DNA from: Candidatus Woesebacteria bacterium RIFCSPLOWO2_01_FULL_39_23
GTDB taxonomy: Bacteria; Patescibacteriota; Microgenomatia; UBA8517
Direction: 5' to 3'
Assembly: GCA_001793095.1 (NCBI GenBank)
Contig: MGHG01000004.1
Span: 7,542-71,541, forward strand
Length of the DNA stretch: 64,000 bases
Positions 54,181-63,530 of the stretch are shown here, piece by piece. Positions within the stretch are counted from its first letter, which is position 1; the number at the start of each line of letters is the position of its first letter. Both the position numbers and the translations under genes were made by a program. Under the pieces are notes generated by a model, which was given only the letters and a program-made list of their open reading frames with translations, did no database searches and had not been told where the DNA came from.

Positions 54181-54588
54181 ATGTTTGAAGCTTTTTCTCA
54201 AATATTTTTAATCGCAATACTAATAGGCTTCTCACTCCAATTTGTTATTAATTGTTTTATATTGTACGGATTAAAGTGGTTAAGAATAGGGGCAAGTTTC
54301 TCATTTAGAACGTCTGTTGGTCTTGCTTTTTTACTTCAAGTTGTGTGGGTTGGTACGGAAATTATAGTGATTAAAGCGGCAAACATCGCATTAATTTTGT
54401 TATCGTCCGTATTTATCTCTTACCTTTTAAACGCTTTGGTTTTTTCAGGAGTGTTGTGGTTGTGTTCCAAAAAAATAGACTCTGTTAAAATTAAGAACTT
54501 CGGATCTGCCGTAATCTCGGCAATAATTCTTCTCGTCCTCGATCAAGTACTTTTACCTTTTTTTATCAGAGAATTGGTTAAATATTGA
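54181..54588 (+). CDS. small 4-TM membrane protein
   Basis: Four hydrophobic helices; no motifs. Confidence 0.4.
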   Translation: MFEAFSQIFLIAILIGFSLQFVINCFILYGLKWLRIGASFSFRTSVGLAFLLQVVWVGTEIIVIKAANIALILLSSVFISYLLNALVFSGVLWLCSKKIDSVKIKNFGSAVISAIILLVLDQVLLPFFIRELVKY

Positions 54589-56872: not shown

Positions 56873-57112
56873 CTATTTTCTGATAAATGATACAGCTGCC
56901 CAACTCATAAAACCAGCTCCGAGTCCGATAAACATCCAGGCAGCTATATTTCCCGTTAACAATCCGATTCCAAAACCCAATAAGAATCCGCCGGGAATTA
57001 TCATTGCACCCATTTTCTTAGCCTCTTCGTCGCCGTTTTCCGCTTCTTCTTTGGCCATGTTAATCACCTCGATTCCAGGAAGATAATTAATATTACCACA
57101 AGCTAATTCCAA
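56873..57112 (-). CDS. small membrane protein
   Basis: Two hydrophobic segments. Confidence 0.3.
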   Translation of the reverse strand: MELACGNINYLPGIEVINMAKEEAENGDEEAKKMGAMIIPGGFLLGFGIGLLTGNIAAWMFIGLGAGFMSWAAVSFIRK

Positions 57113-58679: not shown

Positions 58680-59006
58680 TTACCTCTTTGGTTTATAGTC
58701 TACTAGTTGAGTAGAACTGGAAATAACTCCTGATCCATTCTTCCTAATTAAGTGTACTATATACTGTGTTCTCGTATTATATTCTCCTATGCTTCTTCTT
58801 AGTTCTTCGCTAATGATTTTGTTTGGGTTATTGAATGTTATGTAACCGAATTTAAGCTGCTTTTCTGGGTCATCGCAAACTACAACAGCACCTCTTCCGT
58901 GTTTTCTTAAGCCGATTTTTGCAGCTTTTACTAACTGCTTTCTATTGCCCTCGATAACTGCATTAATTTCCTGAGTAATTGGTAAGGTTTTAATTTCTGC
59001 GACCAT
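58680..59006 (-). CDS. hypothetical protein
   Basis: 108-aa ORF. Confidence 0.3.
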   Translation of the reverse strand: MVAEIKTLPITQEINAVIEGNRKQLVKAAKIGLRKHGRGAVVVCDDPEKQLKFGYITFNNPNKIISEELRRSIGEYNTRTQYIVHLIRKNGSGVISSSTQLVDYKPKR

Positions 59007-59100: not shown

Positions 59101-60357
59101 CTATAACCCCGGTTGGGGAGGAGTTTGTACTACAAAGTCAGTTGGTGTAAAATTTGCGCCGCTAGCGCTATCAAATCCATCGGGGTTTCTTTCGATAGCT
59201 TGATCCTGTGTTGGATTAAGGGGTGGCGTACCCCACTGCACTGTATCAATTATTACGTCAAGAGGATCGAGGAGTTGTAAAAGCCCAGTATCGACATTGA
59301 ATGTGACGCCGCCGAAATTAGCGGTGATAACTCCGTTGTCGTCATAACATTGCGTCCAGGTGGAATTGTCGTGACCAATAAGTGCGAATTGACCTGCCGG
59401 TAAATTGGTATTGGATGTAACCAAGTCAATGGTATTTGTCCCGTCCGTAATACTGAAGTTTTTCAGATTAACGGTGGTTGTGTAGCCGTTATAAACCTCT
59501 AGCCACTGGGCTTCTTTTTGCCCGATAAAACAGGAAGTATCGGGGAGAACTTCGTTAATAACAAGAACTTGGGCGATTCCCGGAGTTGGGGTAGGAGTTG
59601 ATTCAGTTGGCGGTGTAGGTGTCGGACCAAAACTCTCAGCTGCCGAGAGTACATTTCCAAAGCTTGTTTCGACATCTGATAAATATCCGGCAGATAAACC
59701 GACTAAAAAGATAGCAATTCCGGTTATTGGTACAATAATCGCATTTTTTGGCAAGCTTCCCACGTTTGGAGAGGAGGTTGCTTCATATTTTTTCTTAATA
59801 ATTGCCACGGACTTTTTTAGTTGGCTGACAAGAAACTTTATTTCTTCGTAGACAAATATTGTTCCGGGAACAATAACGAAGAGAATAAAACCGTATGGTT
59901 TTTTGGCAAAATCGGCCACGTAGCCGAAGTAGGGGAGAATTAAGACAACCTTACCGATAATATCACTCTGCCTAACCTTGAAATTATCAAAGCTCCGATT
60001 TGCGTCCCCTGCAGTTAAGAACTGGGCCTCCTTGTTAAGTCCGTCGGGAAATAGTTTGACTAGTGCCCGGTGGGTGATTGTATTTTTGCTGCCTTGTTGG
60101 TTAAAAGTGATTATATCTCCCGGAAGATAGTTATTTAGTGGTAAAGAGATAACAACACTCGCGAGCTTAATTTTAGGTTCCATCGAACCCGAATAGACGA
60201 TATAAAACCTCGGCAAGCGCTTTTGCAAATCAACCCAGGAAATATTGTCAATCGTATTAACGTCCGGTTGGACTAAATAGAAGGCAGTGTAAGTGATAAA
60301 CATAAGTGAAATGAAGATGTAGATAAATCCCAGAGTGAATAAAAACTTTCTTAACAT
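59101..60357 (-). CDS. SipW-like type I signal peptidase (S26) fused to a C-terminal lamin-tail domain
   Basis: IVYSGSMEPKI (S26 catalytic Ser motif) after a TM anchor; C-terminal VINEVLPD...EAQWLEVYN...VNLKNFSITDG matches the lamin-tail-domain pattern; Pro/Thr linker TPTPPTESTPTPTP. Start taken at the internal Met (MLRKFLF...) to avoid overlapping the upstream gene. Confidence 0.6.
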   Translation of the reverse strand: MLRKFLFTLGFIYIFISLMFITYTAFYLVQPDVNTIDNISWVDLQKRLPRFYIVYSGSMEPKIKLASVVISLPLNNYLPGDIITFNQQGSKNTITHRALVKLFPDGLNKEAQFLTAGDANRSFDNFKVRQSDIIGKVVLILPYFGYVADFAKKPYGFILFVIVPGTIFVYEEIKFLVSQLKKSVAIIKKKYEATSSPNVGSLPKNAIIVPITGIAIFLVGLSAGYLSDVETSFGNVLSAAESFGPTPTPPTESTPTPTPGIAQVLVINEVLPDTSCFIGQKEAQWLEVYNGYTTTVNLKNFSITDGTNTIDLVTSNTNLPAGQFALIGHDNSTWTQCYDDNGVITANFGGVTFNVDTGLLQLLDPLDVIIDTVQWGTPPLNPTQDQAIERNPDGFDSASGANFTPTDFVVQTPPQPGL

Positions 60358-60393
60358 AGTTGTCAACTTGTACAAAATAGAATAATGCCAGAT

Positions 60394-60432
60394 GAGAGAG
60401 AGGGGGGTACTATAATTCCCCCCTCTGTCTCC
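60394..60432 (-). terminator. G/C-rich hairpin between the TasA-like gene and the signal peptidase gene (possible attenuator)
   Basis: GAGAGAGGGGGG...CCCCCCTCTGTCTC imperfect inverted repeat; weak U-tract. Confidence 0.3.
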
Positions 60433-60451
60433 ACAATAAAAATAAAACCTC

Positions 60452-61366
60452 TTACAAAGGAAGAGGCGTAGGCGTTGAGGTAGGCGTAAGGTTGCATAAG
60501 AAATCATCATTATGCCTTGCCTGTACGGCCTCGAATACAATATCTCCCATGAGTAAATCGGTTTGGGAAATATTTCCAACCTCCGTTCCGTCGCAATTGA
60601 AACCTCCGTCTTCCGGTTCGCCGGGGGTCTGGTTGGCATTATTATCTCCGGCCGGTCCGTCGGGGTAATCACCCGGAGTCAGCGGGGCTTCAGTCAAAGT
60701 ACCAAAACAAAACGCTTTACCGATGTATTGGACTTCTTCTTCACCACCGATCAGAGGTTGACCCGTTTCTGAGTCGGCAAGTGCCCAACGGACGTCATTT
60801 AATACATTGCTTGCAGGTCCACTGGTGAGCACCTCTTCTTCTCTCTCGAGAATATTGTCACCGTCGTCCCTCCAGAAAATGAAATTCAGTTCTTGCGCCA
60901 GGTCACCGTCAGGTGTCCCGTCGCTGCCGTCTCCCGGAAGGCTATCAACTTCGTCTTCGGGTTCGGTTATACCGTTATCACTATTTTCAGTGGTATTTAT
61001 ATCAACGCAAGCCCACGAATCATTGTCAACGTGTAGACTGATGGTATCTTCCTCATAGTCGCCGGGTTTTAGATCCCGGAGAGCAAAAAACACATCGCCT
61101 TCAGCTAGATCTTTTAGTTCCCAGGTACAGAAACAAGGTTCATCGGTTCCTTCCCAAACACGGTCTGTAGGATCTTCCGTGCTCTCATTTAAGACACAGG
61201 TTCTACCATTGTAGTAACAGGTATTATCTACCTTAAGATCCAACGCACCGGCTGCAAGGATGTTTCCTGTTGACGTTTCTTCGTCGCTGAAAAATGCAGT
61301 TGTCGCTCCAACGACACTCCCAACAACTAAAGCTATTGCAAAGACAGATAGCAAAATTCTTTTCAC
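60452..61366 (-). CDS. secreted protein with SipW-cognate class signal peptide (TasA/camelysin-like)
   Basis: N-terminus VVGSVVGATTAFFSDEETSTGNILAAGALDL matches the SipW-cognate signal class; D/N/G-rich; paralogous to the next gene (DGPAGDNNANQTPGEPEDGGFNCDG). Confidence 0.6.
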   Translation of the reverse strand: MKRILLSVFAIALVVGSVVGATTAFFSDEETSTGNILAAGALDLKVDNTCYYNGRTCVLNESTEDPTDRVWEGTDEPCFCTWELKDLAEGDVFFALRDLKPGDYEEDTISLHVDNDSWACVDINTTENSDNGITEPEDEVDSLPGDGSDGTPDGDLAQELNFIFWRDDGDNILEREEEVLTSGPASNVLNDVRWALADSETGQPLIGGEEEVQYIGKAFCFGTLTEAPLTPGDYPDGPAGDNNANQTPGEPEDGGFNCDGTEVGNISQTDLLMGDIVFEAVQARHNDDFLCNLTPTSTPTPLPL

Positions 61367-61455
61367 AAATATTTTTCACCTCCTTTCTACAAATAACATA
61401 TCTTTTAACTTACATGTCATGAAATTATTCAGAGTTATTATTTGGGAATTTCAAA

Positions 61456-62904
61456 TTAGGGTGTTGGTGTTGTGCAAAGGGTTAGAGCCGTTAAAACGTT
61501 TTGTAGATCTTGGTAGTTGGCTACAGGGAAGTAATGCGAGGCATCATCTGCGATTTCCGTGGACAAATACGTTGAGTCGACGTCTCCTCCTACGCCGACT
61601 ACAAAAACCTCAATTCCCAATGCTCGTGCATTATCGGCCGCTGTTGCAGCAACGGCTCGTGCTGTTGCCTCCGGTGAAGGCAGGTTGGGATTACCGTCCG
61701 TCACAATAATCATGATATCGGGCGACACGCCATCCGGGCGATCGTGCGGATCGCCGGCAAGATTTGACAGTTCACCTGAAGCTAAGTCGACGCCTTGGAC
61801 GAGCCTGGTCAGACCGCCTGAGGCGAGCGAGTTAATGGCGGCTTGCACCGCTCCCGCATTATCTGTTAAATGTGAGTCTAGTGTTCCTGATGTTGCAAAA
61901 CTGACCTCGCCTGCGTGTACGCCGGTAGGTGAAAGTCCGAGAGCGGTCACAAAAGAATTCGCCGCGGTTTTAAGATCAGCTAATTCAGAAGAACTTATGC
62001 TGCCTGATCTATCCAGAACCAGCATAACGTCGAGTGGTTGGTTACAGGCAATGGGTGGGGTAGGCGTGATTCCTGAGCACACGAAGCCCGCATTATTTCT
62101 TGCTTGTGTGGCTTGGAAAGTGATATCTAAATTAAGCTCATCGGTTTGGGGTGCATTGTTTAGGTTACTTCCGTCACAGTTTACCCCGCCGTCAGCGGCC
62201 TCACCGGGAGTTCCGTTGGTATTATTATCTCCGGCCGGTCCGTCGGGATAATCTCCCTGGGGAAGAAGCGAAGGCGAAAGTACCCCAAGACACCAGGCCT
62301 TGCCTATATAGTAGGTTTGATCAGGTGATAATGGTTCGTCCGGGTTACCAAAAATATTTTCGGTTGAGTCGGCCACCGACCACGGAATTCCGTCAAAAAT
62401 ATTTTCTGCCTGACCACGCTTAAACGGAGATTCTCCAACCTCCCAAACGTTGTCACCGTCATCTGCCCAAAACACAAATGTCAGACTTGTACCTAACTCT
62501 CCGTCAAGATTATCCCCCCGAACAGTGTCGCAATTGGGGTCATCCGCCAGTTCAGGTTCCGTACATGCTGAATCGTCATCTTTTGTAAGGGTAGGAGTTG
62601 TGCACAACCAATACGGATTAGTGCTGCCGTGAATACTTATAGTATCCTCGCCGTAATCAGAGGGTTTAAGGTCGGTGAAATTAAAAAATAGTTGATCCGT
62701 AAGGTCGCTCATCTCCCAAGAAGTTGCTGGGGAAGATGCGCCGTTATAGAAGCTTTCGTTATCTATTTGTAAATTTATTTCTCCGGATGTTAGGGCGTTG
62801 CTGGTTGAGACTTCTTTGTCAGAGAAGAAGGCTTGAGTGAAGTATATCCCGATGAAGCTGATCAACCCGATTGTTAAAAGACTTAATAGAAGTTTTTTCA
62901 TCAC
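61456..62904 (-). CDS. secreted protein with SipW-cognate signal peptide and C-terminal von Willebrand factor A (VWA) domain
   Basis: N-terminus GIYFTQAFFSDKEVSTSNALTSGEINL; VWA MIDAS LVLDRSGS...TDGNP; GC-richer than the rest of the window. Confidence 0.65.
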   Translation of the reverse strand: MMKKLLLSLLTIGLISFIGIYFTQAFFSDKEVSTSNALTSGEINLQIDNESFYNGASSPATSWEMSDLTDQLFFNFTDLKPSDYGEDTISIHGSTNPYWLCTTPTLTKDDDSACTEPELADDPNCDTVRGDNLDGELGTSLTFVFWADDGDNVWEVGESPFKRGQAENIFDGIPWSVADSTENIFGNPDEPLSPDQTYYIGKAWCLGVLSPSLLPQGDYPDGPAGDNNTNGTPGEAADGGVNCDGSNLNNAPQTDELNLDITFQATQARNNAGFVCSGITPTPPIACNQPLDVMLVLDRSGSISSSELADLKTAANSFVTALGLSPTGVHAGEVSFATSGTLDSHLTDNAGAVQAAINSLASGGLTRLVQGVDLASGELSNLAGDPHDRPDGVSPDIMIIVTDGNPNLPSPEATARAVAATAADNARALGIEVFVVGVGGDVDSTYLSTEIADDASHYFPVANYQDLQNVLTALTLCTTPTP

Positions 62905-63110
62905 ACTATCTGGTTTTTTAAATAAACATACCTAAAATATAGACCGAAAGTTCGGATAAAACTTATACTTGTTTAAAGAAATATTAATAAACTGGAAACA
63001 GATTATATTATTGGGTTATAAGCTGTCAGTAAGAATTACTACAGGCGATTTGTGAGAATTCCAACCAAAAATGGGATTAGTGAGAAAATAAACACTCCTT
63101 GTAATATAAT

Positions 63111-63530
63111 ATGTCGAACATGGCAGAAATTATTAAAGGGAAGAAAGGGGCTGATATTTTGTTGACTGATAGCGGAAAGAAAATATATCGGTCAACACGT
63201 AATCTTATTCGTATTGCGGCTATGGATAGAAGCTTAGAGAGAAAAAATGCTAAAGTAGCAGAACACGTTGCTCGAGTGGGAATCTTTGCTATTAGGGATG
63301 TTAATGATTGTGATGGTGTAACGAGGGAAAGTGTAGAGGAAGCGGTTGATGTAAGGAACGCTATATCGAAGTGTAAGTTAACCGAGATGGAACGAGAAGT
63401 ATTATATTACTTAGAACAGGGTTTAAATCTAGCAGAGATAGGGAGGATAAAAAGTATAACGAGAGTGCGTGTAGGCCAGCTTAAAAATAATATTGCAAAA
63501 AAAATTGCTTTGCAATTAGGAAAATTATAA
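63111..63530 (+). CDS. hypothetical HTH protein (sigma-70 region-4 / LuxR-like C-terminus)
   Basis: LTEMEREVLYYLEQGLNLAEIGRIKSITRVRVGQLKNNIAKKI. Confidence 0.35.
   Translation: MSNMAEIIKGKKGADILLTDSGKKIYRSTRNLIRIAAMDRSLERKNAKVAEHVARVGIFAIRDVNDCDGVTRESVEEAVDVRNAISKCKLTEMEREVLYYLEQGLNLAEIGRIKSITRVRVGQLKNNIAKKIALQLGKL

Follow-up and report, generated by a model that had tools for sequence, protein, structure and literature searches.

Why should a signal peptidase carry a lamin-tail domain (LTD), and why should it be encoded beside two exported structural proteins in a bacterium that belongs to the Candidate Phyla Radiation (CPR)? The question is raised by positions 59101-62904 of the window, i.e. 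of the whole 64-kb stretch of DNA analysed here (Candidatus Woesebacteria bacterium RIFCSPLOWO2_01_FULL_39_23, contig MGHG01000004.1, positions 7,542 to 71,541). Three co-oriented open reading frames (ORFs) on the minus strand, hereafter geneA, geneB and geneC, fill this segment (Table 1), as had been stated in an earlier interpretation made from the letters and ORF translations (the sequence-only reading), which proposed a secreted fibre or adhesin module. The answer to which the results below point, and which we regard as reasonably probable, is that the three genes form an operon for a surface fibre of the TasA superfamily, in which the peptidase encoded by geneC is fused to its own substrate.

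The signal peptidase and its internal cognate site

The peptidase part of geneC belongs to the type found in archaea and in the endoplasmic reticulum (ER). It matches TIGR02228, the model of archaeal-type signal peptidase I, with 77.6 bits (cutoff 51.85), and it keeps the conserved Ser and His of the S26B (ER/archaeal-type) peptidases. The equivalog model of Bacillus SipW, NF046067, gave 73.5 bits for a cutoff of 190; the enzyme is SipW-like in type and context, and not a SipW equivalog. The sequence-only reading had described an SGSMEP peptidase joined through a Pro/Thr linker to a lamin-tail domain running from VINEV to LEVYN, and this description was borne out, as the motifs can be read directly and both TIGR02228 and PF00932 (LTD, of Ig-like fold; 37.3 bits, cutoff 34.3) pass. 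A Pfam scan of the C-terminal product of geneC returned no family besides the LTD. What that reading missed is a third membrane helix (TM3) in geneC and, immediately behind it, a third cognate cleavage and donor-strand motif. That is, the catalytic domain is followed by a second transmembrane helix (TM2), a Lys-rich loop, TM3, the residues SAG leading directly into YLSDVETSFGNVLSAA, the Pro/Thr linker and finally the LTD. The AlphaFold2 model of geneC contains helices at residues 2-28, 154-193 and 204-227, the Lys-rich loop covering residues 194-203, and this topology places the LTD outside the cell. Given TM3 and the internal motif, the LTD is read as a substrate of the peptidase and not as its appendage. 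For the start of the protein we prefer the ATG at 60357 (MLRKFLF..., 418 aa), because it restores the N-terminal membrane helix present in homologues; the gene callers of the Joint Genome Institute (JGI) used a later ATG, giving 400 aa.

The internal site is a conserved property of the family. Among 108 peptidase homologues with a catalytic SGSM (or SASM) motif, 101 have the internal motif, mostly about 170-185 residues after SGSM, and the residue at -1 is S, A or G in all 101, that at -3 is S, T or A in 98, and position -2 varies. Small residues at -1 and -3 with a variable -2 are the classical pattern of signal peptidase I, and they match the N-terminal cleavage sites of the structural proteins, where -1 is A in 116/119 and -3 is T, S or A in 119/119. 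In an alignment of 62 fusions, D228 and N235 of the internal motif are as invariant as the catalytic S58 and H96, and E230, S232 and A239 are conserved in at least 90% of the sequences. A family-specific profile, built from only the first 50 residues of the structural proteins after TIGR04088 (the cognate_SipW model) had failed on C-terminal halves, matched the internal site in nearly every listed homologue carrying the motif (12-36 bits). The peptidase-LTD fusion, which had been thought unusual, is therefore no oddity of one genome, being conserved in more than 100 homologues; database entries label these homologues merely "signal peptidase I". As judged from the -3/-1 statistics, the peptidase may cleave its cognate signals including the internal one.

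The origin of the third helix can be read from related loci, 54 of which were found by a scan of one genome per GTDB species. In about half of them the sipW gene is long and contains the internal motif; in more distant lineages SipW has about 190-230 aa and the motif is absent. In three loci (L037, L038 and L040) the gene for a SipW of about 200 aa precedes a distinct gene for a protein of about 210 aa with a signal peptide, the motif, a linker and an LTD, and in L037 this LTD-substrate gene overlaps the sipW gene by 14 nt. The split, two-gene arrangement is found in some other CPR lineages, including Berkelbacteria. In addition, one protein (P0096) consists of an LTD on its own behind an N-terminal signal of the SipW type, and another (P0114) combines a TasA-like core with an LTD. 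The split-gene forms indicate that the third helix of geneC originated as the signal peptide of a downstream substrate. By comparison of these sequences, then, geneC is an enzyme-substrate fusion, in which a downstream substrate gene has been joined in frame to the peptidase gene.

The gene of the peptidase is also a neighbour of those of its cognate substrates. About 30 loci, all from CPR bacteria, share with the window an arrangement in which sipW has directly upstream of it, and in the same orientation, one to three genes with the motif (at residue 24-30), usually in the order long subunit (core plus extra domain), core-only subunit, sipW. The exact order of the window, i.e. core plus VWA, core alone, and SipW fused to an LTD, recurs in L004 and L020, and L025 and L028 have the same two subunit genes followed by a SipW with TM3, the motif and a short tail; in all four the protein with core and VWA comes first in the operon. 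All informatively named loci are from CPR bacteria (Woese-, Chisholm-, Ames-, Davies-, Beckwith-, Berkel- and Moranbacteria, and Parcubacteria). Titles of metagenome-assembled genomes such as "uncultured Gammaproteobacteria" or "Pseudomonadales" (L003, L004, L007, L013, L025 and others), and likewise "Saccharibacteria", were disregarded as suspected placeholders or errors, because every other named relative of the family is CPR.

Some loci show further variation. L002 (6672-7824) has two tandem copies of sipW, the first of which (P0095) has TM3, the motif and a Pro/Thr linker and then runs into an out-of-frame fragment resembling the C-terminal end of a TasA-like core; this is either a decayed fusion of SipW to a core or a sequencing frameshift. 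In L036 (7441-9936) and L042 (2139-3962) a short SipW is followed by proteins of 600-830 aa with a signal, a degenerate N-terminal motif, uncharacterised regions and an LTD, which look like much larger versions of the donor-only accessory protein.

The structural proteins and their fold

Both structural proteins start with the SipW-cognate signal region, as the sequence-only reading had recognised; the motif is present in each, although TIGR04088 accepts geneB only (20.1 bits, cutoff 19) and geneA does not reach the model. The two proteins are 42% identical across the whole core, including the motif (E 2e-71). In the six-frame translation of the 64 kb, the motif with its preceding hydrophobic stretch occurs three times, always inside the module. 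geneB, which consists of the core, is likely the major subunit. The VWA domain with DRSGS that had been noticed at the end of the distal gene, geneA, is a clear Pfam match (Table 1) with a complete metal-ion-dependent adhesion site (MIDAS), consisting, as read from the translation, of DRSGS, the Thr in GGLTR and the Asp in VTDGNP; these residues may bind metal and ligand. The further idea that the domain forms a tip adhesin found no footing, since geneA retains both the donor strand and the full acceptor core and nothing marks it as a tip subunit. With strand and acceptor core both kept, geneA could sit anywhere along the fibre, and a role in attachment to host cells is speculation. No sortase motif was seen in geneA, geneB or geneC.

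The geneB family comprises 915 hits, and every named source organism belongs to the CPR/Patescibacteria, a group in which homologues of PF12389 (Peptidase_M73/TasA) had been noted by a survey (PMC9245690). The core occurs alone or with varied C-terminal domains (VWA, PF19403, PF24514, LTD, NosD-like, and several with no Pfam match), and it contains four invariant cysteines and a DDGDN loop, neither of which is found in TasA. The loop, FW-x-DDGDN-x-x-E, is invariant in the core (geneB residues 165-174, 60855-60884) and resembles a calcium site of the DxDxDG type; a calcium-responsive clade of the TasA superfamily (AbpX) has recently been described. The internal block DGPAGDNN...NCDG that the two proteins had been said to share can be read directly in both translations. 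At the DNA level it belongs to an 89-nt block (60586-60674 in geneB, 62169-62257 in geneA) that is 79% identical between the genes and includes an identical run of 27 nt, though the proteins are 42% identical; it encodes DYPDGPAGDNN..TPGE..DGG.NCDG, which is variable in the family consensus, and it may reflect local gene conversion between geneA and geneB.

The link to TasA has two parts, one of sequence and one of fold. In sequence, PF12389 gave 26.2 bits for geneB and 16.8 bits for geneA (cutoff 22.5), with a match confined to profile positions 4-51 of 196, so that neither protein is a full-length member, and the TasA equivalog model NF046066 gave 11.7 bits for a cutoff of 450. Using hhalign, the signal and strand of geneB align on TasA residues 3-47 with an E-value of 3.7e-5, the TasA sequence having been entered by hand, and this alignment places the cleavage between A24 and F25 in geneB and, by homology, between A25 and F26 in geneA. 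In TasA the donor strand is formed by residues 28-38, directly after the SipW cut (PMC9674648). A profile of the geneB family searched against all PDB sequences retrieved only chance-level hits to the interleukin-2 receptor, and not TasA. The AlphaFold check for a TasA-like fold that had been proposed was run on geneB, with 63 sequences, and gave a model of good quality (predicted local distance difference test, pLDDT, 84; predicted template-modelling score, pTM, 0.77). When this model was compared with 48,164 PDB chains, the top three matches were exactly the three donor-strand filaments of the TasA superfamily that have been solved, namely the B. subtilis TasA fibre (8aur, 7.1), the Sulfolobus acidocaldarius thread (7pnb, 5.6) and the Pyrobaculum bundling pilus (7ueg, 5.3). 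The modelled core is thus a jelly-roll like that of TasA, AbpA and Saci_0406, and it is linked to TasA by its predicted fold only, not by sequence. In the monomer model residues 20-39, which hold the cleavage site and most of the motif, are disordered.

Proposed assembly and competing explanations

From these elements a scheme of assembly can be proposed. geneA and geneB would be exported by the Sec pathway, and the dedicated ER/archaeal-type peptidase would cut just before F-F-S-D. The new N-terminus, FFSDxExSxGNxLxAG, would then serve as a donor strand inserted into the jelly-roll of the next subunit, the product being a non-covalent polymer decorated with VWA domains. Such donor-strand polymerisation of geneA and geneB would be in line with TasA, and the disordered residues 20-39 in the geneB monomer model are the one piece of indirect evidence for it. 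The peptidase would also cut the internal site of geneC, in cis or in trans, and release the strand, linker and LTD, which could occupy the first subunit's groove, thereby starting or capping assembly, and would display the LTD. This product could act only at a fibre end, because it has a donor strand but no acceptor core. Its role as an initiator of the TapA type is suggested by analogy, not homology: TapA has been proposed to start TasA fibres with a similar strand (PMC9674648). The fusion would supply one initiator per peptidase (1:1), released at the site of processing, and the subunits would be kept in excess over this peptidase-initiator by the two hairpins that lie between geneB and geneC. 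A tentative view, to which we give somewhat less than even chances, is therefore that geneC is a peptidase-substrate polyprotein, which frees a strand-plus-adhesin module that primes a donor-strand fibre where its subunits are processed. If this is true, the system would be a minimal self-priming pilus machine that needs no chaperone, usher, sortase or ATPase; among Microgenomates it is widespread, and it may represent an attachment organelle of ultra-small bacteria that has been overlooked.

Several observations weigh against this scheme. The internal site of geneC scores only 17.3 bits with the family-specific profile, and TIGR04088, when applied to the C-terminal halves alone, of geneC and of three homologues, either gave no match or stayed below its cutoff (best 14.3 bits, in a homologue; cutoff 19). 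The internal motif differs systematically from the N-terminal ones, with Y or F at +1, more hydrophobic residues at +3, +5 and +9, and A, G or S at +16 where the subunits have an invariant G, and within genomes the co-variation of internal and N-terminal strands is weak (0.291 vs 0.260; 87/5000 permutations). On the side of the core, sequence comparison past the first ~50 residues matched neither TasA nor any chain of the PDB. The AlphaFold2 model of geneC, whose low pTM of 0.45 is due to the flexible linker, does not dock the internal site in the active site and extends TM3 as a helix into the motif. Moreover, TM3 and the motif occur without an LTD in L030, L028, L026 and L025, where tails of 19, 32, 43 and 47 residues follow, and the LTD is thus not essential to the role of the motif. 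The last two observations fit another explanation, which we consider unlikely, namely that the internal site is left uncleaved and that TM3 tethers the strand, so that the peptidase anchors or nucleates the fibre at the place of processing while the LTD stays near the surface. In the short-tailed variants, indeed, the conserved unit is the helix plus the strand, not the cargo, and an anchoring function has been ascribed to Bacillus TapA (PMC9245690, PMC9674648). However, the signature of signal peptidase I that the site bears (small residues at -1 in 100% and at -3 in 97%, with a variable -2) would not be needed in an anchor or a strand; in the split-gene forms the same element is found at the N-terminus, as a signal peptide of the usual kind; and if a strand began right at the membrane surface, steric hindrance would make its insertion into the groove of a subunit difficult. 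The short tails can also be accommodated by a cleaved product, as proper biofilms are still formed by a strain in which residues 44-57 are all of TapA that is secreted once the signal peptide has been cleaved (PMC10151520), a result that fits the short-tail SipW variants.

It is more doubtful still that there is no fibre at all, and that geneA and geneB, as adhesins or envelope proteins that are secreted or stay at the surface, are monomers or loose associates with nothing but a specialised signal peptide in common, FFSDxExSxGN being a recognition element for the peptidase and not a donor strand. The limitation of TasA similarity to the signal and motif region, the empty PDB profile search, and the four cysteines and DDGDN loop foreign to TasA would agree with it. 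Against this, all three top matches among the 48,164 PDB chains are donor-strand filaments, the segment behind the cleavage site has no structure in the model of the monomer, which is what one would expect of a strand that has yet to meet its partner, conservation extends to +20, presumably beyond any contact with the peptidase, and a donor-only LTD protein makes sense mainly in strand exchange. The match to Peptidase_M73 could also be taken to mean that geneA and geneB are secreted metalloproteases of the camelysin type, in view of the PF12389 scores given above. This we consider very improbable and have rejected: the Pfam match concerns the signal region, i.e. signal plus strand, no HExxH motif is visible in either translation, and TasA, the archetype of PF12389, is itself a fibre subunit (PMC9674648). 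A last alternative concerns the origin of the module, not its function. The structural genes had been called more GC-rich than the rest of the window, which is correct (geneA 0.489 and geneB 0.479, vs 0.381 +/- 0.032 in the 57 other ORFs of the window, maximum 0.457), and a recently acquired island from a GC-richer donor would account for it; GC at third codon positions is also raised (0.42-0.44 vs 0.34 +/- 0.046, z 1.7-2.2), and the flanking intergenic DNA has a GC content of 0.24-0.35. The excess, though, is largest at position 2 in geneA (z 3.4) and at positions 1 and 2 in geneB (z 2.6 and 2.3), which points to amino-acid composition (rich in Gly, Asp, Pro, Ala and Thr). Furthermore, in 18 of 21 related loci the counterpart genes have a higher GC content than the DNA around them; the difference reaches +0.105 in AT-rich genomes and is about 0 in genomes near 50% GC. 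Neither an integrase nor a transposase was found by Pfam in the flanking ORFs, no RNA family reached the Rfam threshold in the window, and even the closest homologues are no more than 60-66% identical. The raised GC is largely a family trait with no specific support for horizontal transfer, and the inference of horizontal acquisition that had been drawn from it is not upheld; we consider an island improbable.

The preferred scheme, i.e. a TasA-type fibre with a peptidase-substrate fusion, can be compared with known systems. It comes nearest to the B. subtilis tapA-sipW-tasA operon, with archaeal filaments next. It resembles that operon in that a dedicated ER/archaeal-type peptidase is encoded with its substrates, in that the substrate signal is followed by an A-F-x-D strand motif, which forms the donor strand in TasA, and in that an accessory protein (TapA there, by analogy the LTD module here) has a donor-like strand and a complete beta-sandwich and would lack an acceptor role. 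It differs in that the core is unrecognisable by sequence past about residue 50 and has the four cysteines and the DDGDN loop, in having two paralogous subunits, one with a VWA domain, and in the accessory domain, which is an LTD whereas that of TapA is a V-set Ig domain and which is fused in frame to the peptidase via an internal signal peptide. The gene order is different as well, and the host is a CPR bacterium. Among the archaeal filaments of the superfamily, those compared were Pyrobaculum AbpA/AbpB, the Sulfolobus Saci_0406 threads, haloarchaeal Tafi and AbpX. AbpB is a minor subunit proposed to supply the first strand and to act as an adhesin (PMC9245690), and in archaea a signal peptidase I gene is often co-located, AbpX loci having peptidase fusions to other modules (bioRxiv 10.64898/2026.01.04.697558). 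Unlike the window proteins, however, AbpA is reported to use a generic peptidase, the AbpX-associated peptidases are proteins with 10 transmembrane helices and accessory modules, not substrate fusions, and the cited descriptions mention no LTD or VWA domain on the subunits.

Signal-peptidase homologues serve other pili too. SipA/LepA of Streptococcus pyogenes is essential for pilus polymerisation; it lacks the catalytic residues and serves sortase-polymerised, covalently linked pili, whereas geneC retains both invariant catalytic residues, Ser and His, and is associated with subunits of the TasA type. The combination of a polymeric fibre with a VWA or lectin adhesin is known from the VWA tip adhesins of sortase pili (RrgA, GBS104) and from chaperone-usher tips (FimH, PapG). 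The window module shares with these the fibre plus metal-dependent VWA or lectin adhesin, and with the chaperone-usher pili the donor-strand logic, but the strand and acceptor core of geneA set it apart from such tips, and it involves no usher, chaperone or sortase. Searches of the literature on SipW and TasA with CPR names, and on LTD with signal peptidase, yielded no description of this architecture. The proposed fibre is of a known kind, the TasA type, with a new architecture consisting of a divergent core, swappable adhesin-type domains, an LTD accessory protein, a peptidase fusion and a CPR host. A dependence on contact with other cells is commonly assumed for CPR bacteria, whose surface appendages are usually ascribed to type IV pili; the recurrence of this operon type across Microgenomates suggests that they have a second system of fibres, TasA-like, whose adhesin domains (VWA, LTD, NosD-like and others) can be exchanged. 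The fusion of peptidase and substrate offers a simple, testable answer to a question of the TasA field, i.e. how fibres start and become positioned, and geneC would be an unusually clean natural case of an enzyme fused to its own cleavage substrate.

Hairpins, promoter and neighbouring genes

Table 1. Coordinates of the module, its parts and associated elements in the window (putative donor strands and cleavage sites are predictions)
Feature	Nucleotides	Strand	Residues	Remarks
geneA	61456-62904	-		482 aa from GTG, 481 aa from the adjacent ATG; TasA-like subunit with C-terminal VWA, core to about residue 280
geneA signal			1-25	predicted cleavage between TQA and FF
geneA donor-strand motif FFSDKEVSTSNALTSG			26-41	putative donor strand
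geneA VWA	61492-62031	-	292-471	PF00092 71.9 bits (E 9.7e-20), PF13519 39.8 bits
geneB	60452-61366	-		304 aa, core-only TasA-like
geneB signal			1-24	predicted cleavage between TTA and FF
geneB donor-strand motif FFSDEETSTGNILAAG	61247-61294	-	25-40	putative donor strand
geneC ORF as listed	59101-60672	-		523 aa, over-extended, overlaps geneB
geneC peptidase part	59686-60357	-	1-224	first transmembrane helix at residues 2-28; S58 (SGSMEP), H96 (THR)
geneC TM3		-	204-224	h-region of internal signal peptide ending S-A-G, after TM2 and a basic cytoplasmic loop
geneC internal SipW-cognate motif	59638-59685	-	225-240	directly after predicted cleavage between SAG and Y
geneC linker	59581-59637	-	241-259	Pro/Thr-rich; pLDDT below 50 for residues 237-259
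geneC lamin-tail domain	59101-59580	-	260-418	includes stop codon; extracellular beta-sandwich cargo
Terminator-like hairpin with T-run (TTTATTTTTA)	60447-60467	-		straddles the geneB stop codon
G6/C6 stem-loop	60394-60431	-		between geneB and geneC; centroid -24.3 kcal/mol
Candidate operon promoter	63002-63029	-		CTGACA, 16 nt, TATAAT; about 100 nt upstream of geneA

The G6/C6 hairpin that had been reported to separate the structural genes from the peptidase gene was located between geneB and geneC (Table 1). The 98-nt region containing it has a z-score of only -1.8 relative to shuffled sequences. In 18 of 24 loci, nevertheless, the stretch from the last subunit gene to sipW contains a strong stem-loop, compared with 11% of length-matched random segments (Mann-Whitney p ~1e-8), a contrast that partly reflects the intergenic location, as the random controls were mostly coding. 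The position of these hairpins is conserved and their sequences are unrelated. The G6/C6 hairpin probably acts as an attenuator or on mRNA stability, thereby keeping structural protein well in excess of peptidase.

The promoter-like site upstream of geneA agrees with the consensus at 11 of 12 positions, the best in the scanned region, and is a candidate by this consensus match alone. Contigs of three JGI metagenomes (3300025318, 3300002503 and 3300025167) carry an operon whose geneB is identical, whose gene order is the same and whose flanking genes also agree. The Rfam scan, which included the flanks of the module, gave neither tRNA nor any other RNA family at gathering thresholds.

A divergent ORF of 139 aa at 63111-63530 on the plus strand has a helix-turn-helix resembling Sigma70_r4/GerE (23.6 bits, just below the Pfam cutoff) and, from this similarity, is a candidate regulator of the operon; in L002 a gene for an extracytoplasmic function (ECF) sigma factor and a DUF5667 gene lie downstream of the module. 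The downstream neighbour of geneC in the window is an unrelated ORF of 108 aa (58680-59006). In two loci of the Woesebacteria type (L001, 9564-10661; L002, 9420-10519) the SipW-LTD gene is directly followed on its 3' side by a gene whose product is anchored in the membrane and has a beta region containing PGD as well as RTX-like (HemolysinCabind) repeats, and which has no counterpart in the window. Farther away, two ORFs of the window, at 56873-57112 (-) and 54181-54588 (+), encode small membrane proteins with sub-cutoff matches to phage holins (PF07332, 18.3 bits, and PF04020, 21.2 bits, respectively).

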